This document shows positions 1,497 to 58,154 of a stretch of DNA of 64,000 nucleotides, piece by piece; the first letter of the stretch is position 1; every line of letters begins with the position of its first letter. A program made the position numbers and the translations under genes. The DNA is from Patescibacteria group bacterium (GTDB taxonomy: Bacteria; Patescibacteriota; Patescibacteriia; JAHIZJ01), in NCBI GenBank assembly GCA_028714495.1, contig JAQTMH010000004.1:64232-128231 (forward strand), written 5' to 3'. The notes beneath the pieces are model-generated. The model saw only the letters and a list, made by a program, of their open reading frames with translations. It made no database searches and had not been told where the DNA came from.

Positions 1497-1629
1497 ACAA
1501 AGCAACAATTTTTGAATTTAAAAAGCTATGTTTTATTTATCCACTTGCTTGTTAATTCCAAGGCCGCTATAATAATATAAGCTCTCTCTCACGCACTGGC
1601 CCGCCATATCCTCTTTCCCCATGATGCCT

Positions 1630-1668
1630 GGTGACTTTAGTCCGCGGCCCTAAAGTCACCTTTTTTAT
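1630..1668 (+). terminator. rho-independent terminator after GDPD gene
   Basis: GGTGACTTTAG...CTAAAGTCACC stem followed by TTTTTT. Confidence 0.7.
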
Positions 1669-1943
1669 TTGCCTTCACACCAGCAGTTGTAGAGTTACTT
1701 AACAATATTTTCAGTACAAACGAAAGCGGAGCCATAGGCAAATAACCCGCCGAAGGCCCCCAATATTACCTAGCTGGTAAAAAGCCAGATAAATAATGAA
1801 AATAAGTACTGTTAAATAAATGCTAACCGGAGGCGGGTAATGACCACCTTATTACCAAGGATTTACATTGGAGATGCCGGAACCCCCTGACTAGATCGGG
1901 GGCCGGCATGACTGCAGAAGTGGTATTATTAGCCGCTGCAAAT

Positions 1944-2055
1944 AACCCCGCCCCAATCTCAGCCAAGTCCGTAGTTTGTCGTTGACCTAAGGCGAAGCCG
2001 CCTAGCGGCTTGCGCTTTTTCTTATTGATGGCGTCCATAAGATTGGGGCGGGGTT
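1944..2055. repeat. 112-nt palindromic hairpin element, copy 1 (16-bp terminal inverted repeat AACCCCGCCCCAATCT)
   Basis: Termini are perfect reverse complements. An internal GCGAAGCCGC...GCGGCTTGCGC hairpin is followed by a T-run. A second copy lies at 48881..48991. Confidence 0.8.
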
Positions 2056-2337
2056 AAACAGCTATTTATTTTAAATAATTGTAAAATTGACCCAAGCCCA
2101 AAAATATGCAATGATTATAAGGCCGAGAGGTTCTTGGCAACCGCTCATTCGGCCCATAACCACAAGGGGGTTCAATTTGAACTGGCCAGGGCTGCTATTC
2201 GACGCAGTCGCGGGGAGTGAGGTCGCGAACAAGGCCAACACGAAGACGGCCGAGCGTGACGACATGTCGTGAGCCAACTCAGGAGGACTCACCCATGAAC
2301 CGCATACGCGATTCCGACTGAACCGCCAAAGCGGTGC

Positions 2338-2372
2338 GCGGCAGAGGTTATCCAACCACTGCCGCCTTTTTA
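2338..2372 (+). terminator. rho-independent terminator
   Basis: GCGGCAG...CTGCCGC stem followed by CTTTTTAC. Confidence 0.55.
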
Positions 2373-2415
2373 CTTTAGGGAAATTAACAGAAGGCGGTTG
2401 TTATCCACAGCAGCT

Positions 2416-2443
2416 TTGACACTAGTAGTAAGTGGACTATAAT
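2416..2443 (+). promoter_or_regulatory. consensus sigma70-type promoter (TTGACA-N16-TATAAT)
   Basis: Exact TTGACA at 2416 and TATAAT at 2438. Confidence 0.6.
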
Positions 2444-2543
2444 ATACCTGTCGTTCGCGTGTGCGGTTGTGCGGCAGGGGGAGTTGGCGAATGACAGCAG
2501 GTAAACCGTCGTGGCCGCATTAACTGGGGAAAGGAGAAATCCT

Positions 2544-2579
2544 ATGGCCAACAGACGGTGGAGCTCGGTTCTCTTCTAG
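2544..2579 (+). CDS. 11-codon micro-ORF (MANRRWSSVLF) with strong SD
   Basis: AGGAG lies 7 nt upstream of ATG. It sits between the consensus promoter and a rho-independent terminator. Function unknown. Confidence 0.3.
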   Translation: MANRRWSSVLF

Positions 2580-2624
2580 CTCTTCCTGGCGAAGAAGAGG
2601 GCTCAAAGGCTCCGGATGCCTGAA

Positions 2625-2698
2625 GGTGGCTGAAAGTATCTTGTCGGGGAGATCCGTGGCGGCTACGACAAGAGCTGGAAGCCACCTCTTTTTATTTG
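2625..2698 (+). terminator. rho-independent terminator (long stem with internal hairpin)
   Basis: GGTGGCT...AGCCACC followed by TCTTTTTATTTG. Confidence 0.55.
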
Positions 2699-3160
2699 CA
2701 GTGGCTAAAACCCTACCCGCCTCCGGTTGCTGCCTGCTTTCGCTTTTTCTATTACATTCATTTTTCATTATTACAACAGTTAGGTAAATAAGGGGGGCCT
2801 TCTGCGGGTATTTGCCCTTGGCTTCGACAATGTAATTAGTAATAGATAATCTTCCACCCATCACATTTGTTGGTTCTTTGTCAAATAAAAAACGGGGCGA
2901 ACCGTCTGAAGGGAGCAAGCCGCAGAGAAGTTTCGGCAGGCGCGGCTTGCCAACCACCGGTTCGCCCCTTCCGGGCAATGGCGATCGGCGCATAGATTTT
3001 TGGAGTTGGGCGGGGTCACCCGGCAAGCTTTTCGGTAAACGCCGACCAATGAGCAATTCAGTACCCCCTAGGCTTCTCTTATAGTCCGGGCGGGAAAAAG
3101 CTCCGGCCCAGCTATGATTTTAGTATAGTTGTTATTGGATAGGCAGACAAGTGCTGGTAG

Positions 3161-3529
3161 TTATAGTTGTTTAACCATGTATGTATCTCGAAGTTTGTAG
3201 CCGATTTTACGATAGTACTCACGCACCCCGATGCCGGAGATAACGGCGATTTTTTAAAGCCTTTTTTGAGAGCGATTTTTTCAGCTTCACGCATTAATCT
3301 TTTGCCCAGGCCAAGATGCTGGACCGCTGATTCCTTCTTTTTTCCCCTTCAGTTCAATCAGCTGGCCGTATATGTGGAGCTCTCTAATCAGCGCGCCGTC
3401 CTTTAAAACCGGAAACAGCTGATTGATTTCCGGCGATGGATAAATTGGGAGCCGGACAAAGGCATAAAGCCTCTGGCGGTTTTTATTCTCGTAGAATATG
3501 AAATATTCAGTGCCAGCCGAAGCCACCAT
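3161..3529 (-). pseudogene. displaced 3' fragment of elp3-like gene (frameshifted)
   Basis: The two short ORFs 3112..3294 and 3287..3529 are homologous to the C-terminal GNAT region of ORF 4579..6180 (LYAFVRLP.., LIRELH.YGQ, KKGFKK). One A is missing in the A-run near 3251, giving a frameshift. The last 87 bp are near-identical to 4590..4677. Confidence 0.75.
3169..3255. repeat. 87-bp direct repeat (left copy) flanking inserted element
   Basis: Near-identical to 4590..4677 (2 mismatches, 1 indel). Flanking sequence is only about 70 percent similar. Confidence 0.85.
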
Positions 3530-3556
3530 TTTTTTAATAATAAAAGGAGGCGTTAT

Positions 3557-4297
3557 TCACGCCTCGCGGGTCAGCTGTGCGATCTCGTCTTTGTAGAGAT
3601 CAAGCCACCCTTCATCAAAGAACCACTTGGGAACGAGTGATCCCTTTAGCCGCCGCTCGCGCTGGAGCGTCCGGTACGTCCAGACGCAGTGACCCTCGCT
3701 GCCGCGCACCTTAGGCGCGGTGACCGCCTGACGCACGACATTGTGCGGAAGTGTGTAGGGCGGATTGAATCCGCCGTTGATTTCGATGTAGGTGCGGCGC
3801 AGGTTGAGCGCTGCCGTGAGGAATCGCACGAGCAGGCTGAACCCGCGGTTGGTGCAGCATGCGTCGGGATGAACGATGATCAGGAACGACTGTCCCCGTC
3901 CGCGCATCGGGTGATTGATGCAATTCCAGGTGTCGCTGCCGTCGATTGCCCGGTCCGTTGTTCGGCACTCAGGCGGAGAGGACAGATACGTGATGGGGTC
4001 GCCGGGTTCGTCTCGCAGGAGCACCCGGTCAGTGGCACCGTTCACCATGAAGGCCCCGTGCCAGCCCAGGAGCTCGGGATGATACCGCGGAATCACGTAA
4101 AGACTGTCGTTCGGATCGTCCGAGAACGTGCAGCAGCCGCGCCAGAACGTGAAGGGATGCTTCTTCGGCGCGTAGAATGTGACGCGCCAGCGTTCCAGGC
4201 AGTCAGTCTCGACTTCCCAGCGCAGGAGAATGCCATAGCGTCTCCGGATGCGCGTGACCAGGCCCTTGAGGGCGCTTTCCAGACTAGGATAGAACAT
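3557..4297 (-). CDS. hypothetical protein with FNPPY motif (possible N6-adenine/N4-cytosine DNA methyltransferase catalytic motif IV), GC-rich foreign gene
   Basis: 246-aa ORF with RBS GGAAGGGGG upstream of ATG 4297. It contains NGGFNPPY; no clear AdoMet motif I was recognised. The antisense 297-aa ORF was rejected. Confidence 0.5.
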   Translation of the reverse strand: MFYPSLESALKGLVTRIRRRYGILLRWEVETDCLERWRVTFYAPKKHPFTFWRGCCTFSDDPNDSLYVIPRYHPELLGWHGAFMVNGATDRVLLRDEPGDPITYLSSPPECRTTDRAIDGSDTWNCINHPMRGRGQSFLIIVHPDACCTNRGFSLLVRFLTAALNLRRTYIEINGGFNPPYTLPHNVVRQAVTAPKVRGSEGHCVWTYRTLQRERRLKGSLVPKWFFDEGWLDLYKDEIAQLTREA

Positions 4298-4506
4298 CAG
4301 TGTACCCCCTTCCGTGGATTTGGTTGGCTGTTGACAGTATTTGGCCGACAGCCCTTTTTATCATATTCAGTTTGTCTTGTCAAGGGCGTAAAAAGGCCGT
4401 CGGCTTGCATTTCTATGGATCGGTGTCGGTTCACTCCTATGAATGGTAACAATGACGATGCTAACCCCACGGCAACCGTGATGAGCATCCTGTACATTTT
4501 TAGCAC
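4297..4506 (-). CDS. hypothetical small protein (69 aa, N-terminal hydrophobic segment)
   Basis: ORF only, inside the inserted element. Confidence 0.25.
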   Translation of the reverse strand: MLKMYRMLITVAVGLASSLLPFIGVNRHRSIEMQADGLFTPLTRQTEYDKKGCRPNTVNSQPNPRKGVH

Positions 4507-4578
4507 ATTGGGCGGTTATACGGCTGAGCCGCGACTCGGTGCTATTGAAACTATATTGCGTTGTCGGATGAATGATAA

Positions 4579-6180
4579 TTAGGACAGAGGTTTGACCATA
4601 TATGTATCTCGAAGTTTGTAGCCGATTTTACGATAGTACTCACGCACCCCGATGCCGGAGATAACGGCGATTTTTTTATAGCCTTTTTGGCGGGCGAGAC
4701 GTTCAGCCGTTAGCATCAGACGCTTGCCAAAACCCAAGTGCTGCACGGCTTTTTTATCTGTTTGACCGACAGGGATCATTTGGCCGTAAGTATGGAGCTC
4801 ACGGATAAGCGCTGTGTTTTTTAATACAGGTAACAACTGTTGCAGGCGAGATTGGCCAATCTCGCCTATGGGTGAATTGTTTGGCAGACGCAGGCGCAGG
4901 AAAGCATAAAGCTTCTTTCGAGTTTTATCCTCGAAAGAAATAAAGCACTCATCTCCAGCCGCGGCCCGGTATTTTTCGGCAAAAATCTTGGCTTGACTGG
5001 GTTTAACCTGGCTGGCACGAGCTTCGCGGCAACGAATGCATTGGCAGATTACGCCGCGCTCGCTTAGAACCTGGCGCAGGTTTGTCAGACGGCTTCCAGC
5101 CACGATATCTGGGCCGGGAATATCGCGCACCAGCCGTTCGATTCTGACCCAGCGGGGAACCAGCGCTTTCAGCTTTGGGATTAATGACATCAGTTGGCGC
5201 TCGGAATAGGGTTTATATTTCCCGCGTTTCCACAGATGATAAAGGGGAGAGTTTTTAAGCACCACGGTCGGATAGAGTTTTAGGAAATCGGGTTTGAAAC
5301 GCGGATCAGTAAAGACTTCCCGGAAGGTTTTGATATCTTTTGCCGGAGTAGCTCCAGGCAAGCCGGGCATGAGATGATAATTGATTTTTAAACCGGCCTC
5401 ACGCAAAAGTTTCGTGGCTTGGACTATGGTTTTAACATCGTGGCCGCGCTTAACCAGCTTGAGGATTCGATCGTCAGTGGTTTGAACGCCGATCTGAACG
5501 CGGGTAACGCCCAATTCACGCAGGCGCCTGATCTCTTCCGGAGTGATGAAGTCGGGCCGGGTCTCGATAGTCAGTCCGATAATCCGGTTTTTGGCGTGTT
5601 CATTCAGTTTCTGAGCAGCTGATAGGCCAGAGGCAGTTTTTCCATTAGCCGCGTCAAAGCATCGCTTAATAAACTGGGTCTGATAGGCTGTTGGGTAAGC
5701 CGACCAGGTGCCGCCGAGGACGATGAGTTCGATTTTATCAGTGGCGTGGCCATTGGCCTGAAGAGTGGCTATTCGGGTTTTTACTTGTCGATGAGGGTCA
5801 AATTTAGCGCGAAAAGCCCGTTGCGCCGCCGGTTCGGAAACCAGATAGCTTTTTGGCATCTGATCTTCGGCCGGACAGTAAACGCATTTGCCCGGGCAGG
5901 GGTAGGGCTTAGTTAGCGCGGTTATTACGGCCACGCCCGAAAGGGTGCGGATTTTGCGGCGGCGCAGGGTATTTAATAGAGGAGCGCTAACCGGCAAACG
6001 CCCGGCCTTTATCAATTGCCGATATGCCCGTAAAATAGTATTATTAGAGATGATCGGGAGATTAAACTCTTTGGCGGCGCGACGCTTAAATCCAGCCAAG
6101 TCTTCCGAGCTAGCGACGCTACTCCCCAATAATTTTTTGACTATGGGATACCAATCCATATGAAAAGCGATTTTGCTCAA
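4579..6180 (-). CDS. elp3: Elp3-like radical SAM / GNAT acetyltransferase (tRNA U34 modification family)
   Basis: Radical SAM region has KIRTLSGVAVITALTKPYPCPGKCVYCP and GHATDKIELIVLGGTWSAY. The C-terminal domain is GNAT-like. 533 aa. Confidence 0.8.
   Translation of the reverse strand: MSKIAFHMDWYPIVKKLLGSSVASSEDLAGFKRRAAKEFNLPIISNNTILRAYRQLIKAGRLPVSAPLLNTLRRRKIRTLSGVAVITALTKPYPCPGKCVYCPAEDQMPKSYLVSEPAAQRAFRAKFDPHRQVKTRIATLQANGHATDKIELIVLGGTWSAYPTAYQTQFIKRCFDAANGKTASGLSAAQKLNEHAKNRIIGLTIETRPDFITPEEIRRLRELGVTRVQIGVQTTDDRILKLVKRGHDVKTIVQATKLLREAGLKINYHLMPGLPGATPAKDIKTFREVFTDPRFKPDFLKLYPTVVLKNSPLYHLWKRGKYKPYSERQLMSLIPKLKALVPRWVRIERLVRDIPGPDIVAGSRLTNLRQVLSERGVICQCIRCREARASQVKPSQAKIFAEKYRAAAGDECFISFEDKTRKKLYAFLRLRLPNNSPIGEIGQSRLQQLLPVLKNTALIRELHTYGQMIPVGQTDKKAVQHLGFGKRLMLTAERLARQKGYKKIAVISGIGVREYYRKIGYKLRDTYMVKPLS
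4590..4677. repeat. 87-bp direct repeat (right copy) flanking inserted element
   Basis: See 3169..3255. Confidence 0.85.
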
Positions 6181-14711: not shown

Positions 14712-17700
14712 TTAGTAGCCTGGGGCGATAGTGATGCCGCCGCGGAAGCCCTTGTGGTGTGAGAAGAACTGGGACAAGGCTTTACCGTTCCGGTCAAAGG
14801 TCCTGATTTGCGGACCCATGCCCTGGCCTGGCGCAGTCACAATCTCATTCGTGCCATCGCCGTTTAAGTCAGCTACGAAGGAGGTGAAATTGCCTCTTAG
14901 GCTTGATGAATAAGCCCAGAACTGGGAGAGCACCTGGCCATTCTTGTCAAACACCCGGATCTGCGGACCGGCAGAGGAAATCGGAGAGACAACAATGTCG
15001 TTGTTGCCATTGCCATCAACATCGCCGACTGAGGCATTTACGCCGCCCCTGAAAGTCTCGGCGTAGGCGAAGAAGCGTTTGATTAGAGTGCCATCGCCTT
15101 TGAAGATAGCTACCTGCGGGCCAAGTCCGGCTTTTGGACTAACCACGATATCAGCTGTGCCGTCGCCATCAATGTCACCAGTCTTTATATTGTAACCGCC
15201 GCGGACAGTGGTGGCATAGGCGAAGAATTGGCTAACCTGGGTGCCGTCGTCTTTGAGGACCCGGATCTGCGGACCGGCATTGCTTTCCGGCGCCACCACC
15301 AATTCATTTATGCCATCACCATTGGTATCTCCAGTCGCCACGGTTAAGCCACCTTTGTAAGAGCTGGCATAGGCCATAAATTGATGTTTAACATCACCCT
15401 TGTAATTAAACACGCGTACTTGCGGGCCACCACCAGACATAGGTGAGGTGATTATTTCAGCGATGTTATCGCCATTGACATCAGCCGCGGTCAAATTTAC
15501 GCCCATTCTCACTTTTGAATCATAGGCGAAGAATTGGTATTTGAGTTTGCCAGCGTGATCGAAGACTCTTATTTGAGGACCAGCACCAGCGCCTGGAGCG
15601 ACAATTATCTCGACTTCGCCGTCGCCGTCAACATCAGCCGTTGTGGCCTGGATGCCGATGCGGAGCGTGGAGGCATAGGCGAAGAAGTTAGCAATCACTT
15701 TACCGTTCTCATTGGCAAGGATCACTTGCGGACCGCCGCCTGATAGCGGAGTGGCAATGATGTCGTAGTTATTGATTTCATTTCCGGTCGCGCCAGCGCC
15801 GGTAGCCAATGCGAAATTCGTGAAGTGATCAACTGAGAAGCAAACGACATTATTTTCAGTGTCCTGGGTAACTCCGTTAGGTAACTGCCAGGCGCCATTG
15901 GTAGAGTTATAATACTTAGCTACCAGGTCGTCTTCGTTGACCCCCACTTCATCCAGCACGGCTTGATCATAAGGGATGCAGATGGTTACGTTGCTATTGA
16001 ACGACTCGATCAATTGCTGATTGCTGTCCAGGGCCGAGAAGTCCCAAGCGAAATTGATCGGCTTGGTGTCGTTGGTTCGATAGATATTTATGTTCGGTGA
16101 AGCCATGAAGGTCACGTCGCCTTCAGTAGCCAGGGCGTTGGCCGGAATGCTTACAGTAGTGCCATCGGGTAGAGTGATGTTGTTTTGATTTGAAGCGGTA
16201 ATTTGCTGGGTTAAACCTTCGGGAATCGACCAGGCCTTCTTCTCCAGAGTGAATGATTTAGTAACCTCGCCTTTGGCAGAAATCGTCACCATCGCTTCGT
16301 CAGAACGGTAGAATCCTTCAGTTGTGCCCATTTCGCAGCCAATATACCAAGTTCCGATAATCAATGGGATTCGACCGGTACCATCCATTATTTCACCGCC
16401 GGAAAAGCCGCCATCAGGATTGAAGGCATGGCACCAACCGAAGTTTACTTTTGAACCGTCGGCAAATGAAGCATTGGCAATGACCGTGGCATCAGCTTGG
16501 CGGAACTGCATAGTTACCGTAGCGGGCGAAGTCGGTGTAACCGTAATATCCTGAGCCATTTCTGGAGGCATCCAGTTATTTTTTGCCATTTCCATACCGT
16601 TGCCAGAACCGCACTCATAGGTATCGGCGACCAGGCGAACCACGCCAGTGCCACCTCGAACTTCAGAACCGGCATTAATTTCCTTGCCCCCCTCGAAATC
16701 ACCAGTTACTTTATTTTCATGGGCTCTTCGGTTTGAACACCAGATATAACCATATGACACTGGATTGCCGGACGGGTCGAGCAAATTGACTGTAATTTGC
16801 GAATCAGCTCGATAGACGGTAACGACTTTAGTGACAGTGCCGCCAACCGGTACGGTAAATGGCGCCTGGTCTGGATTTGTCTGGACAAAGTCAGGATTAT
16901 TTCGGAACCAATAGTTTAAGAAGTAGGCCTTGCCGCCTTTGACCGGCAGATTGAAACTGCCATCGGCCTGAAGACGGGTGTTCATCCACATGCCGCCGCC
17001 GTCTGATCCGGCATTGACATCAGCTTCAACATTGGTAACCTTTGTGCCGTTTTGATCTTGGAAGAAGCCGATAATATTCGCGTCTGGCGGTATCATGGTT
17101 AGCTTAACATCTTTTGTCTCGCCGGCCGCGATAGCAACTTCCACCTCCTCTTTTAACAGGAGAGTGGCTTGGTCAGAGGGAGTCTGGGCTCCAACAACAA
17201 AGGTTTCCCCACCGATCAGATGAATAGTGGCGGATCCGTTTTGAATGCCGTTGCCGAATTGATCGCCCCCCTTATTCCCACCGCTCTTTTTGCGGGCATA
17301 GGCATAGCCGAACATATTATTAATAGCGTTGCCGTTCGCGTCAACTAATTTTACGTTTATCGTGGCGTCAGCCAACTGGACCACGATATCTTCTGCAGTA
17401 ACAGTTTGGTTGGCAGACAGTATATAAGAAGGTCTCGGACCCGATTGATTTTGAATGTAGGTAGAATCAGGACCTTGGTTTATGCTGCACTCCCATTCAC
17501 CCGGCCAGACCCAGGCAGTATAGCTGCCGTCAGCGCCGGTTTGACCCTGTGTCCAGCCAAAGCCCTGCCGTTGATTGCAATTGACTCCAAGACTGGCGAC
17601 TGGCGTACCGGTATTGGTAATAACCCGGCCGACAATCCTGCTGGTTTTTTCCGACATGGTTAAGGTGCCGAGGTCGAGAGTTTGGTTAGCCGCAACTGTT

Positions 17701-19028
17701 ACCGAGGTTTCTGATAGATAATATTTAGATAATTCAGGAAACCGCTGAGTATCGGCGTTGACGCTCATTTTATACGTGCCATCAGTAAGATTCGCAGAGA
17801 AGGTGCCATCCTGATTTATTCCACTACCCATGCCCTGGCCTTCGCCTTTGCGCAGATCGACATTTCCGCCAGACAAAGGAGCACCGTTAGGCAGGACAAT
17901 TTTACCTTTTATTATCGCGTTGGTTTTAGTAACGGTGAAATCCGTTGTCAGATTTTGAACGGAATTATCGTTTACGAAACTTACCATGGTTGGCGGCTGA
18001 TTATAAGTCCAGTCAACTTGTCTCTGGCGCTGATTCTCTTGATCCCAGCCGGCATTGAGATTTAGGTTCCAGTTGCCGCCCGAGAGAACCAGGCTGTACG
18101 TTCCATTACTACCGAGATCAACGCCCTTGCCGCCAGAACCACCTTCACGATTGGCCCAGATTTGTCCGCCAGTGGTAACTGGAGTGCCGTCGTTATATCT
18201 GACAGTTCCGGTTAGGGTCTTGGTGGCAGCTTGCAATTGAGCGTTAACCGTAGCGGCAGTAGTTCCGTTATAGGCAAACTGGATTGGATCTGGGGCGACA
18301 AAGTCACCATATTGAGGACTAAGAAATATATTCAGAGTGTAGGTGCCAGCAGTGATGTTGCTATCAACAAAGGAATAGGCGCCCCATAGATCAGTTTGAG
18401 TATGAAAATTCATCGAAAAGTCAGCCGTTTGGATGTCAACACCTAGATTGGGAGCTATATCGCCGTTTGGCAGGGTTACGTTGCCCTTAACTTGGTACGC
18501 GCCAAAATAGACCGGATCAGAAGGAGTTTTATCCGGATTATCGCCACCCTCCTCACCAACCAGAGAAGTCATGCCATAGGCGCGGTAGTGGCCGTTGATA
18601 TTGATTGGGTTTCGCACGCCGGCAATTACCAAAGTGTAGTCACCAGCTGCTAGGTTGTTAACAAAAATTCCAAAATTAGTACCCCCGGCGTGGAATTCTC
18701 CAGCCAGACCAGAACTCAAGGTCGCGTCTGTAAAACTGGGATTGCAGAAATCCCATTGCCCATTACAACCGCCGCTTACTCCAAAATCAAAAACCACATT
18801 GCCAGGACTGCTCAAGGCGGCTCCCATTGTAAAATCGATTGTATAGGTGGTAGTTGCGCCAGCCACTGAACTTGCGGCGCTAAAAGAGACCGCGGTAATA
18901 CGAGAATCAGGATCAGGAGTTGTGGGCATTTCATCGGCGCGGGCTGGTTGAACCACTAGAAAAAACGAAAAAATCAATACTGCTCCAGCTCCGACGTAGA
19001 AAATTGCATTTTTTTTGGACTTTTTCAT
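14712..19028 (-). CDS. giant secreted surface protein with prealbumin/Ig-like domains and C-terminal FG-GAP/VCBS beta-propeller repeats
   Basis: 1438 aa with an N-terminal signal peptide. The C-terminal third has about 7 tandem repeats (...SGGGPQVRVF...DVDGDG..EIVV..). Confidence 0.8.
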   Translation of the reverse strand: MKKSKKNAIFYVGAGAVLIFSFFLVVQPARADEMPTTPDPDSRITAVSFSAASSVAGATTTYTIDFTMGAALSSPGNVVFDFGVSGGCNGQWDFCNPSFTDATLSSGLAGEFHAGGTNFGIFVNNLAAGDYTLVIAGVRNPININGHYRAYGMTSLVGEEGGDNPDKTPSDPVYFGAYQVKGNVTLPNGDIAPNLGVDIQTADFSMNFHTQTDLWGAYSFVDSNITAGTYTLNIFLSPQYGDFVAPDPIQFAYNGTTAATVNAQLQAATKTLTGTVRYNDGTPVTTGGQIWANREGGSGGKGVDLGSNGTYSLVLSGGNWNLNLNAGWDQENQRQRQVDWTYNQPPTMVSFVNDNSVQNLTTDFTVTKTNAIIKGKIVLPNGAPLSGGNVDLRKGEGQGMGSGINQDGTFSANLTDGTYKMSVNADTQRFPELSKYYLSETSVTVAANQTLDLGTLTMSEKTSRIVGRVITNTGTPVASLGVNCNQRQGFGWTQGQTGADGSYTAWVWPGEWECSINQGPDSTYIQNQSGPRPSYILSANQTVTAEDIVVQLADATINVKLVDANGNAINNMFGYAYARKKSGGNKGGDQFGNGIQNGSATIHLIGGETFVVGAQTPSDQATLLLKEEVEVAIAAGETKDVKLTMIPPDANIIGFFQDQNGTKVTNVEADVNAGSDGGGMWMNTRLQADGSFNLPVKGGKAYFLNYWFRNNPDFVQTNPDQAPFTVPVGGTVTKVVTVYRADSQITVNLLDPSGNPVSYGYIWCSNRRAHENKVTGDFEGGKEINAGSEVRGGTGVVRLVADTYECGSGNGMEMAKNNWMPPEMAQDITVTPTSPATVTMQFRQADATVIANASFADGSKVNFGWCHAFNPDGGFSGGEIMDGTGRIPLIIGTWYIGCEMGTTEGFYRSDEAMVTISAKGEVTKSFTLEKKAWSIPEGLTQQITASNQNNITLPDGTTVSIPANALATEGDVTFMASPNINIYRTNDTKPINFAWDFSALDSNQQLIESFNSNVTICIPYDQAVLDEVGVNEDDLVAKYYNSTNGAWQLPNGVTQDTENNVVCFSVDHFTNFALATGAGATGNEINNYDIIATPLSGGGPQVILANENGKVIANFFAYASTLRIGIQATTADVDGDGEVEIIVAPGAGAGPQIRVFDHAGKLKYQFFAYDSKVRMGVNLTAADVNGDNIAEIITSPMSGGGPQVRVFNYKGDVKHQFMAYASSYKGGLTVATGDTNGDGINELVVAPESNAGPQIRVLKDDGTQVSQFFAYATTVRGGYNIKTGDIDGDGTADIVVSPKAGLGPQVAIFKGDGTLIKRFFAYAETFRGGVNASVGDVDGNGNNDIVVSPISSAGPQIRVFDKNGQVLSQFWAYSSSLRGNFTSFVADLNGDGTNEIVTAPGQGMGPQIRTFDRNGKALSQFFSHHKGFRGGITIAPGY

Positions 19029-48175: not shown

Positions 48176-48742
48176 ATGACAAAATTTAATCTTAAAAACC
48201 TTGCGTCAGACAAACCCAGCATAAAATACTGCACCGCGAAGCAAGCCGTGGAACTGTCGAAGCAAAACCCACAAGCTCTCTATCCTAAGCTCGACGTATT
48301 TCTGCCGTTTCTCGACGGCGAAAACCATGTGCTCAAATGGGTAGCCATAATAATTATCGGAAATCTAGCCGGTGTTGACCGTAATAAAAGAATCGACCGG
48401 CTGGTGCCGAAATTGGCCGGCTTCTTGCACACCAAAGAATTAATAACCGCCGCGAATTCGATAAAAGCGCTGGGAAGTATCGCCCTGGCCAAACCTAAGT
48501 TCCGGGATGAAATTATCCGTCATATGTTGACGGTAGAAGGGGCTAATTATATAAGCAAGGGTAAAATATCTCCAGAATGCAGAAATGTCGTTCTCGGGCA
48601 CGTCCTGACCACGTTAGGTGAGTTGCCGGATGAGGCAATACGTAAGCCTGTAGTCACGGCCTTTCTCAAGCGCCAAACGAAAAACCGACGGCCAGCGGTG
48701 CGGGAGAAAGCGGTTGAATTGTTGAAAAGACATTGTAAATAA
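48176..48742 (+). CDS. hypothetical protein
   Basis: 188-aa ORF. Confidence 0.5.
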   Translation: MTKFNLKNLASDKPSIKYCTAKQAVELSKQNPQALYPKLDVFLPFLDGENHVLKWVAIIIIGNLAGVDRNKRIDRLVPKLAGFLHTKELITAANSIKALGSIALAKPKFRDEIIRHMLTVEGANYISKGKISPECRNVVLGHVLTTLGELPDEAIRKPVVTAFLKRQTKNRRPAVREKAVELLKRHCK

Positions 48743-48880: not shown

Positions 48881-48991
48881 ACCCCGCTCCAATCTCAGCC
48901 AAGTCCGTGGTTTATTGTTGGCCAAAGGCGAAGCCGCCTAGCGGCTCGCGCTTTTTCTTATTGATGACATCTATAAGATTGGGGCGGGGTT
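48881..48991. repeat. 112-nt palindromic hairpin element, copy 2
   Basis: About 90 percent identical to 1944..2055. Immediately followed at 48992..49025 by the sequence that lies 755 bp downstream of copy 1 (2811..2843). Confidence 0.8.
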
Positions 48992-49062
48992 CTTTGCCAT
49001 TGGCTTCGATAATGTAATTACTGAATTATTTACTTCTACTCATTACCAGAATTGGTACGGGG

Positions 49063-57459: not shown

Positions 57460-57523
57460 AAATAAATATGCAATGTTCAAAACGTAAAATGTCTTCTTGT
57501 CAAATATTTATTATTTTGGGAAC

Positions 57524-57832
57524 ATGAAAGACAAGAGGAAATATGCTGATCGAGCGAAATACCTTATCAACGCAGTTAAGAAAAGAAGAAAAAATGTCCG
57601 CGAAATGGCGATCTCTTATAAGGGTAATAGATGCGAGATATGTGGCTACAGAAAATGTAATGAAGCACTGGAATTTCACCACCAGATTAGCAAAAAAGAT
57701 TTTGGAATATCTAGCAAAGGATACACCAGAAGCTGGGAAAAAGTTAAACACGAACTAGACAAATGCGTATTACTCTGTGCGAATTGTCATCGGGAAGCAC
57801 ACGCTGGCAAACACAAAGTTGTTGATAAATAA
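57524..57832 (+). CDS. free-standing HNH endonuclease
   Basis: CEICG...EFHH...CANCHREAH (HNH zinc-finger nuclease motif). About 100 aa. Immediately upstream of the intron-containing tRNA. Confidence 0.75.
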   Translation: MKDKRKYADRAKYLINAVKKRRKNVREMAISYKGNRCEICGYRKCNEALEFHHQISKKDFGISSKGYTRSWEKVKHELDKCVLLCANCHREAHAGKHKVVDK

Positions 57833-57858
57833 ATAGAAAAGGTCAAAGAGCGGTGAGT

Positions 57859-58154
57859 TCCGCGATAGCTCAATGGTAGAGCAACCGGCTGTGTACGAAA
57901 ACGCAGCTTCCGATGGAAACGTCGGGATGAACTCTCTGGGATAACGGTGAAGGCTTCATTCAAATTCTATTTGAATATGCTGATACCGTGGGAACCCCCG
58001 CACCTTCCGAAGGTGAGGGGGGCGCCGTAGAGACTAGATACCAGAGTGCCTAAACCCAGTCATTTGGGTAAGGCAAAGATATAGTCCATGCCGTATGGAA
58101 ACATATGGATTACGTGTAACCGGTAGGCTGTCGGTTCGAATCCGACTCGCGGAG
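57859..58154 (+). tRNA. tRNA-Asn (anticodon GUU) interrupted by a group I intron in the anticodon loop
   Basis: Exon 1 is 57859..57892 and exon 2 is 58117..58154. The spliced product has acceptor TCCGCGA/TCGCGGA, D arm GCTC-AATGGTA-GAGC, anticodon stem ACCGG/CCGGT, loop CUGUUAA, T arm GTCGG-TTCGAAT-CCGAC and discriminator G. Confidence 0.8.
57893..58116 (+). ncRNA. group I intron (224 nt, small IC3-like tRNA intron)
   Basis: P1 pairs exon GCUGU (57888-92) with IGS GCAGC (57903-07), giving a U.G wobble at the splice site. R element AGAGACTAGA (58029-38) and S element AAGATATAGTCC (58076-87) form P7. The terminal G (omega-G) is at 58116. Confidence 0.8.

Follow-up and report, generated by a model that had tools for sequence, protein, structure and literature searches.

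Within a 64-kb stretch of DNA from a Patescibacteria bacterium (contig JAQTMH010000004.1; the window, in what follows, is this whole stretch of 64,000 nucleotides) a palindromic element of about 112 nt occurs twice. At the second copy it is followed directly by a 28-nt motif, TTGCCCTTGGCTTCGACAATGTAATTA; at the first copy, in the intergenic region between the genes for the GDPD phosphodiesterase and Elp3, the same motif lies 755 bp away. How did the two arrangements arise, and what are the 755 bp? An earlier note on this DNA offered three readings: a small non-coding mobile insertion, a small-RNA locus, or a deletion in the second copy. Comparison with related genomes points to the small-RNA locus. 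The GDPD-ELP3 intergenic region is probably a long-standing small-RNA island that was later colonised by short palindromic repeats, and the supposed insert would be long-standing intergenic DNA with a repeat copy on either side, E2 and E3. Four such copies, E1 to E4, are located as follows (window coordinates).

1712..1842, minus strand: E1, palindromic repeat copy with core 1745-1838 (ACCCGCC...GGCGGGT), inverted partner of E3
1943..2056, plus strand: E2, copy 1 of the palindrome, with a 17-bp perfect terminal inverted repeat, a central motif and a T-tract
2705..2845, plus strand: E3, palindromic repeat copy (core 2715-2809, ACCCGCC...TGCGGGT) with the 28-nt motif directly after the right terminus
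48881..49020, plus strand: E4, copy 2 of the palindrome, with the palindrome at 48881-48990 and the full outer extension (flank motif) on the right at 48993-49020

The region is flanked by genes for a HAD hydrolase and the GDPD phosphodiesterase and, on the minus strand, for the radical-SAM/GNAT protein Elp3, the homologs of which assign the window to the Patescibacteria. It was compared with a sister genome (L001; Elp3 protein 95% identical; 21.6 kb compared), a more distant syntenic locus (L002; Elp3 69% identical), a third lineage that was reached via a homolog of the window gene ORF246 (L025), and loci of more distant relatives fetched for comparison (L003, L021-L024 and L026). Of two Logan contigs, L019 is 100% identical to the window haplotype, and L020 has that of L001.

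In the sister genome the interval and the palindrome part company. Window positions 2082-3054 (973 bp) align to L001 at the same locus without a gap and with four substitutions, and positions 1678-2081, which include E1 and E2, are unalignable or highly diverged. E2, 100% identical in L019, is absent from the orthologous site of L001, where a different 57-nt palindrome is found, and its terminal repeat occurs nowhere in the 21.6 kb of that genome. E2 is present in one sister genome and absent from the other; the palindrome is the variable part and the interval is resident. In L002 and L025 one RNA gene candidate of the interval, RNA B, is present and no E-type palindromes lie nearby, which suggests that the repeats arrived after the RNA island. 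The interval also lacks the marks of an insertion sequence or transposon: inspection of the junctions at 2056 and 2810 revealed no matching repeats, there are no terminal repeats of its own and no target duplication, no second copy was found in the window or the fetched loci, and phage and plasmid collections contained nothing that blastn could match to 1500-3120.

The duplication itself is as the earlier note had described it. E2 (1945-2055) and E4 (48881-48991) are 91% identical over 111 nt (repeat search; blastn E=4.7e-38), and each comprises 110-114 nt without an ORF (open reading frame). The terminal inverted repeat of E2, TAACCCCGCCCCAATCT, is a perfect 17 nt (1943-1959 and 2040-2056), and that of E4 has 16 bp with one G-T pair. 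The central motif of E2, GGCGAAGCCGCCTAGCGGCTT, is followed by a T-tract in a terminator-like arrangement, and inside both copies a hairpin, AAGCCGCC-TAG-CGGCTT, precedes a T-tract (1995-2011 in E2, 48932-48946 in E4). Both fold far better than shuffled sequences (z=-5.9 for E2, z=-4.5 for E4). E4 is located just 3' of the plus-strand gene 48176-48742 and is the sole plus-strand terminator-like site listed after its stop codon, a position where this gene would need a terminator.

The 28-nt motif, at 2811-2838 and again at 48993-49020 (93% identity; blastn E=2.9e-5; exact matches limited to 2811-2827 and 48993-49009), is contiguous with E4 and 755 bp from E2, again as noted earlier. Its first occurrence, however, directly follows the right terminus of E3, a different repeat copy, so that nothing need have been separated from E2; the reading of the motif as the displaced flank of E2 is not supported. 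E3 was recognised, together with E1, by self-comparison with blastn, which yielded an inverted match of 82-83% between 1727-1776 and 2777-2826. The match extends to units of about 95 nt, inverted copies of about 80% identity that bracket a cassette of two RNA candidates, RNA A and RNA B. On its left side E1 has the outer extension GAGCCATAGGCAAATA, the same as that of E3, inverted; the left side of E2 has a partial one, AGCCGCTGCAAATA, a 15-nt remnant. Common to E1-E4 are the termini ACCC(C)GCC...GGCGGG(G)T plus the outer extension (..TCGAAGCCAAKGGCAAAKA; extended terminus ..ACATTRTCGAAGCCAAKGGCAAAKAACCCCGCCCCAATCT), which is long (about 35 nt) and imperfect. The right terminus of E3 reads CTGCGGGTA and continues with TTTGCCCTTGGCTTCGACAATGTAATTA; that of E4 reads GGGGCGGGGTT and continues with CTTTGCCATTGGCTTCGATAATGTAATTA. 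A scan of the 64 kb for terminus pairs detected four, spaced 94-110 nt apart, which fall into two subtypes, E1 with E3 and E2 with E4. Judged by these termini, the 28-nt motif is the outer extension of the terminal repeat of the family and at the first locus belongs to E3. E3 is identical in L001 and L020; the L001 counterpart of the E1 arm has strongly diverged.

What does the resident interval encode? Two predicted units, each running from a promoter to a terminator, lie between E2 and E3, and a terminator on the opposite strand follows E3.

2087..2372, plus strand: RNA A unit, with promoter TTGACC-N17-AATGAT with TG (2087-2115) and a predicted transcript of about 2122-2372
2416..2698, plus strand: RNA B unit, with exact promoter, P1 hairpin, Shine-Dalgarno sequence, 11-codon ORF and terminator
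2894..2969, minus strand: convergent terminator, a 76-nt hairpin followed by a T-tract (fold z=-3.8)

The promoter assigned to RNA B, TTGACA-N16-TATAAT at 2416-2443, had been pointed out in the earlier note and is the sole exact consensus promoter in the 64 kb, where 0.01 would be expected. The predicted transcript comprises about 250 nt (approximately 2450-2698). Right at its predicted 5' end is the P1 hairpin (2450-2458/2487-2495), and further downstream are a purine-rich Shine-Dalgarno sequence (GGGGAAAGGAG, 2526-2536), an ORF of 11 codons (2544-2579, MANRRWSSVLF) and, in the minimum free energy (MFE) fold, a terminator consisting of the long hairpin GGTGGCT...AGCCACC (2625-2686) and the T-tract TCTTTTTATTT. 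Both terminators of the interval, likewise listed in the earlier note, have long loops and were missed by a simple scanner; in MFE folds they appear as G+C-rich hairpins with a U-tract. Predicted intrinsic terminators of this form are those at 1995-2011, 48932-48946, 2338-2365 and 2625-2686 and, on the minus strand, at 2894-2969; the last is in L001 the terminator region downstream of ELP3.

Homologs of RNA B were found in L002 (12752->12503, aligning to 2448-2700) and L025 (2105->1848), in both beside ELP3 and convergent with it. The local alignments have z-scores of 7.9 (window-L002), 13.7 (window-L025) and 58 (L002-L025) against dinucleotide shuffles, a control that relatedness alone can exceed. 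All three lineages have a sigma-70-like promoter. The arms of P1 differ between them (GUCGUUCGC/GCGAAUGAC, GUCAUCCG/CGGAUGAC and GCCACCCG/CGGGUGGC), and all nine pairs are kept, four of them changed on both sides and none broken; overall, 98.8% of the cells are paired, as opposed to 35-55% with the partners slid. Also common to the three are a Shine-Dalgarno sequence (GGGGAAAGGAG or GGGAGAAAGGG) located 7-9 nt before the AUG, a mini-ORF with aligned ATG and stop codon and an in-frame 3-nt indel (MANRRWSSVLF, MARIWRSILA, MSGRWKSILV), a helix GGAGC/GCUCC, and the invariant outer stem of the terminator, GGUGGCU/AGCCACC. With nhmmer profiles and a covariance model (R1) no further homolog of RNA B, or of another RNA candidate (X) next to the ELP3 gene, was detected in L003 and L021-L024, nor was there a significant match for either in L026. 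The 293-nt spacer after ELP3 in L026 contains a unit convergent with ELP3 (3790-3964, minus strand) whose architecture resembles that of RNA B: TTGACA-N17-TATTAT, a 5' hairpin, GGGAGGG with a 12-codon ORF (MAVRNVRGIAVS) and a terminator. This look-alike scores just 2.4 bits with the RNA B covariance model.

The small-RNA option of the earlier note is therefore the one that is supported, in that RNA B is conserved at the ELP3-adjacent site with covariation in P1. RNA B would most likely act as a stand-alone small regulatory RNA or a micro-ORF mRNA, and translation of the mini-ORF is plausible. Dual-function small RNAs with micro-ORFs are known in the SgrS/SgrT and RNAIII types. RNA B resembles them in its own predicted promoter, 5' hairpin, Rho-independent terminator, length of about 250 nt, intergenic location and Shine-Dalgarno sequence with a short ORF; it differs in that it has no sequence or Rfam relation to any known family and that its ORF comprises only 10-11 codons. 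RNA B is also reminiscent of leader-peptide attenuators, in which alternative hairpins and an intrinsic terminator come after a short ORF. However, no same-strand gene follows the RNA B terminator in the window and L025, and a convergent terminator is located immediately downstream in all three lineages, which argues against RNA B being an attenuator. In L002 a same-strand gene for a lipoprotein-like product begins about 300 nt beyond the convergent terminator.

Could the 755 bp be a decayed protein gene in which the promoter and terminator matches are incidental? Gene callers do annotate a hypothetical protein of 113-193 aa here on the minus strand, where an antisense ORF of 178 aa extends over 2520-3056. 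This ORF, tested as a real gene and rejected, has no homolog beyond its own species among 5.8 billion clusters and no notable Pfam, PHROG or NCBIfam match, and its antisense course takes in E3 and the two terminator hairpins. Apart from it, the interval 2056-2810 contains only chance-like ORFs, in agreement with the earlier note, and a Shine-Dalgarno sequence is present at the mini-ORFs alone. Tblastx against L002 and L003 found nothing in the interval except one 12-residue match (E=9e-4), as opposed to the significant RNA-level homology of RNA B. The hypothetical protein annotated at 2520-3056 is in all likelihood spurious, and a decayed gene is scarcely credible as an explanation of the interval. 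A derivation of the E1 and E3 arms from a gene for a small membrane protein (in L001 an ORF of 83 aa) was also rejected; there are stops in every frame in some copy, and the shared repeat termini fit better. The search for known RNA families that had been suggested in the earlier note gave, for the window at gathering thresholds (cmscan), just two matches, a tRNA and a group I intron, neither of them in this region. For 1500-4700 at E<=10, Rfam yielded two matches at chance level; L001-L003 had none, and ARAGORN found no tmRNA.

The mobile insertion, which would have split an ancestral unit of the 112-nt element and its 28-nt flank at copy 1 by 755 bp of non-coding DNA with its own promoters and terminators, has in its favour that element and motif adjoin each other at copy 2 but not at copy 1, and that the interval has a higher G+C content than the DNA immediately around it. 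Arguing against it are L001, which holds the interval from 2082 onward without the 112-nt element, and the occurrence of RNA B at the syntenic ELP3-adjacent site of L002 and L025 without repeats. Moreover, the right 100 bp or so of the supposed insert (2715-2809) are homologous to E1 on the left of the palindrome, so that its boundaries cut through a repeat copy, the 28-nt motif already adjoins E3's own terminus, and phage and plasmid matches are lacking. Such an insertion is highly improbable. Alternatively, DNA may have been lost at copy 2. Recombination between E2-type and E3-type right termini, with loss of the intervening DNA, would make E4 a chimera, and its junction GGGGCGGGGTTCTTTGCC can indeed be read as an E2-type terminus joined to an E3-type extension (E3 reads CTGCGGGTATTTGCC); related termini could recombine. 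This scenario demands that about 1 kb had earlier been duplicated at a distance of 47 kb, of which there is no trace, 1500-3200 having no other match near 48.9 kb, and the partial extension on the left side of E2 is better accommodated by a symmetrical extended terminal repeat. The deletion in copy 2, for which no direct support was obtained, is unlikely. E1 and E3 might, finally, be the ends of a composite non-autonomous transposon of about 1.1 kb (1712-2845) that carries RNA A and RNA B as cargo, since they are inverted, about 80% identical and bracket the cassette, with the same arrangement in L001. Yet in L002 and L025 RNA B occupies the same position, adjacent to and convergent with ELP3, without the arms, which implies that the cassette predates them. 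There is no second copy of the composite in the window or the fetched loci and no target-site duplication flanking 1712 and 2845, and a transposon of this kind is very unlikely.

If the small-RNA island was colonised by repeats, what kind of repeats are they? A scan of a genome collection for both termini revealed at least three E2-type copies in a metagenome-assembled genome (MAG) of Ca. Sungiibacteriota and at least two termini-only matches in a KSB1 bin. A metagenome scan contributed one true copy (L016), the other 8 of the 9 among the matches listed being due to chance, and with a 25-nt degenerate pattern of the extended terminus no match was obtained in metagenomes. The four true copies outside the window are all located in spacers of ribosomal-protein genes (L2/L23, L6/S8, S8/S14 and L24/L14), co-oriented with the genes. 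An alignment of six E2-type copies shows common termini, the perfect conservation of which across lineages is imposed by the search patterns, the central motif GGCGAAGCCGYCTRRCGGCT and sub-terminal blocks; their interior is without covariation. Since all six copies examined are co-directional with local transcription, the repeats may be tolerated or used as RNA hairpins when in sense orientation. The U-tract to which the window copies owe their terminator-like character is missing from the copies within operons; the hairpins might act as terminators where a U-tract follows, as in the window, and within operons might be neutral or serve in processing. The ribosomal operons of Sungiibacteriota contain, in addition, a second, related type of palindrome with the termini ACCCGCCCAAGTTTTTC (L009 4952-5088 and 6198-6358; L008 75-140). 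A repeated block of about 75 nt follows each element there, and several spacers are filled with nested repeats.

Like a miniature inverted-repeat transposable element (MITE), E2 and E4 are non-coding and have terminal repeats (17 bp, and 16 bp with one G-T pair, respectively), and the copies are dispersed and polymorphic, with four in 64 kb, E2 absent from L001 and further copies in other Patescibacteria. A target-site duplication of fixed length was not found: TA..TA flanks E2 only, and no matching flanks were seen at E4 or at the copies L008, L009a, L009b and L016. The repeats would be non-autonomous elements like MITEs, ERIC and Correia, moved in trans by a transposase. ERIC/IRU, Correia elements and the Rickettsia palindromic elements are MITE-like palindromic repeats. 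Shared with them are the length of about 100-150 nt, the absence of coding capacity, the terminal inverted repeats, the several copies per genome, the location in transcribed intergenic spacers including operons, the differences between close relatives and the ability to carry terminator-like hairpins. The E2-type copies differ from them in having no sequence similarity, no consistent TA duplication and an imperfect outer extension of about 35 nt; the host of the E-type repeats belongs to the Patescibacteria, the candidate phyla radiation (CPR), and no cognate transposase is known. A search of the literature revealed no description of such palindromic repeats in Patescibacteria. REPs are units of 20-40 nt with a conserved GTAG head that form inverted doublets and are associated with a RAYT gene. 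The E-type repeats resemble REPs and REPINs as short G+C-rich intergenic palindromes able to form mRNA hairpins, but they comprise 95-112 nt and have termini of 15-17 bp and a conserved central motif. No GTAG head or REP-sized doublet was seen in the copies read; GTAG was not systematically scanned for, and no RAYT search was made in the window.

A number of observations weigh against the proposal of a resident RNA island colonised by mobile repeats. The 99.6% identity to L001 over 2082-3054 does not speak for constraint, as identity between the two genomes is a mosaic in which other 1-kb blocks, inside protein genes, reach 100%; an interpretation of the near-identity as constraint or recent transfer was dropped because of such equally identical blocks. 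The case for RNA B draws on three divergent lineages, with covariation limited to one helix, P1, and on z-scores that kinship by itself may raise. Most differences between the mini-ORFs of L002 and L025 are non-synonymous, and the conserved helix GGAGC/GCUCC overlaps part of the ORF. Beyond the sister genome no homolog of RNA A was detected, and the promoters and terminators are consensus matches only. As to the repeats, the termini of E1 and E3 are complementary over just 7 bp and these copies fold no better than shuffles; what links them to E2 and E4 is the terminus and extension that all four have in common, and the uniform termini of the distant copies reflect the way they were searched for. 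No target-site duplication is consistent across copies, and among the matches listed in the scans, all of them short elements, there was no transposase with matching ends.

RNA A (fold z=-3.0), identical in L001, has AGGAGG and an ORF of eight codons (2295-2321, MNRIRDSD); its predicted terminator is the hairpin 2338-2365 followed by TTTTT. Its possible homology to a unit upstream of RNA B in L002, suggested by the MNR with which both start, was not significant (z=-1.1) and was discarded. Two further RNA candidates were recognised around the interval.

1545..1672, plus strand: RNA C candidate, with promoter TTGCTT-N17-TATAAT (1545-1573), a CU-rich predicted transcript of about 90 nt (approximately 1580-1668) and a terminator hairpin (1631-1661) with T-tract
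4380..4560, minus strand: X RNA candidate, co-directional with ELP3 and immediately 3' of it, about 175 nt, with a promoter-like site and a terminator

RNA C, directly after the GDPD gene, has an overlapping promoter-like match at 1549-1576 and is identical in L001 from the -10 box onward. Its stretch CCUCUUUCCCC is complementary to the Shine-Dalgarno region of RNA B; pairing of RNA C with the Shine-Dalgarno regions of RNA B or RNA A was not significant against shuffles (p~0.05-0.06). X has homologs in L002 (12324-12499) and L025 (706-869), with pairwise z-scores of 20.3, 13.1 and 31.5. In L002 the terminators of X and RNA B are one bidirectional hairpin.

X lies in a 1.3-kb segment (3267-4589) that is absent from L001 and is bordered by direct repeats (3169-3268 and 4590-4689) representing 100 nt of the ELP3 3' end, 93% identical. 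The segment contains X, ORF246 and a diverged ELP3 3' fragment (3287-3529, minus strand), and L001 has the upstream part of the window ELP3, the shared 100 nt and the downstream part of the fragment. This arrangement bears the signature of a Campbell-type single-crossover integration of a circular ELP3'-X-ORF246 molecule, or of its reversal by repeat-mediated deletion. In L025 ELP3 is followed by X and then ORF245, beyond which there is no duplicate piece of ELP3. ORF246 (3557-4297, minus strand) has 62% G+C as against about 47% for the genome, is identical to the NCBI protein PHI73_04285 of a Patescibacteria MAG and belongs to an uncharacterised family with 128 cluster representatives, most members of which, at about 360 aa, have an additional region at the N-terminus. 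Pfam, NCBIfam and PHROG gave no match for ORF246; its AlphaFold model is of high confidence (predicted local distance difference test, pLDDT, 94.8; predicted template modelling score, pTM, 0.91), and Foldseek found nothing in PDB or BFVD at E<0.2. As a transposase of the repeats it was rejected, there being no matching termini around it, no family match and no known fold. Elsewhere in the window, a group I intron core (57883-58108; Rfam RF00028, 52.4 bits) is preceded by an HNH-endonuclease-like ORF (57497-57832), with rpoD on one side of the pair (57497-58108) and a gene for a short-chain dehydrogenase on the other. An ORF of 1438 aa (14712-19028, minus strand), at the position of which L001-L003 have an FG-GAP-repeat protein, contains diverged tandem repeats of 153/306 nt (14950-15690).

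Patescibacteria genomes are very small and tightly packed, and a search of the literature found no description of non-coding RNAs or repeat elements in this group. In a region of 3 kb there are at least two RNA candidates without an Rfam family, RNA B and X, that have been kept across lineages, one of them with a conserved micro-ORF. A more far-reaching proposal, to be taken as tentative and rather doubtful in its entirety, is that RNA B and X would represent a previously undescribed Patescibacteria-specific RNA family beside ELP3 that encodes a conserved peptide of 10-11 residues, M-[AS]-x-R-x-W-x-S-[VI]-L-x, and that the E2-type palindromes would be not just selfish MITEs but orientation-selected RNA hairpins used by the reduced CPR genomes as terminators or processing sites, including those in ribosomal-protein operons. 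If expressed, the RNAs would give access to the post-transcriptional regulation of bacteria that are uncultured and depend on hosts; the repeats are useful as markers of recent change in the genome and might influence where transcripts end.

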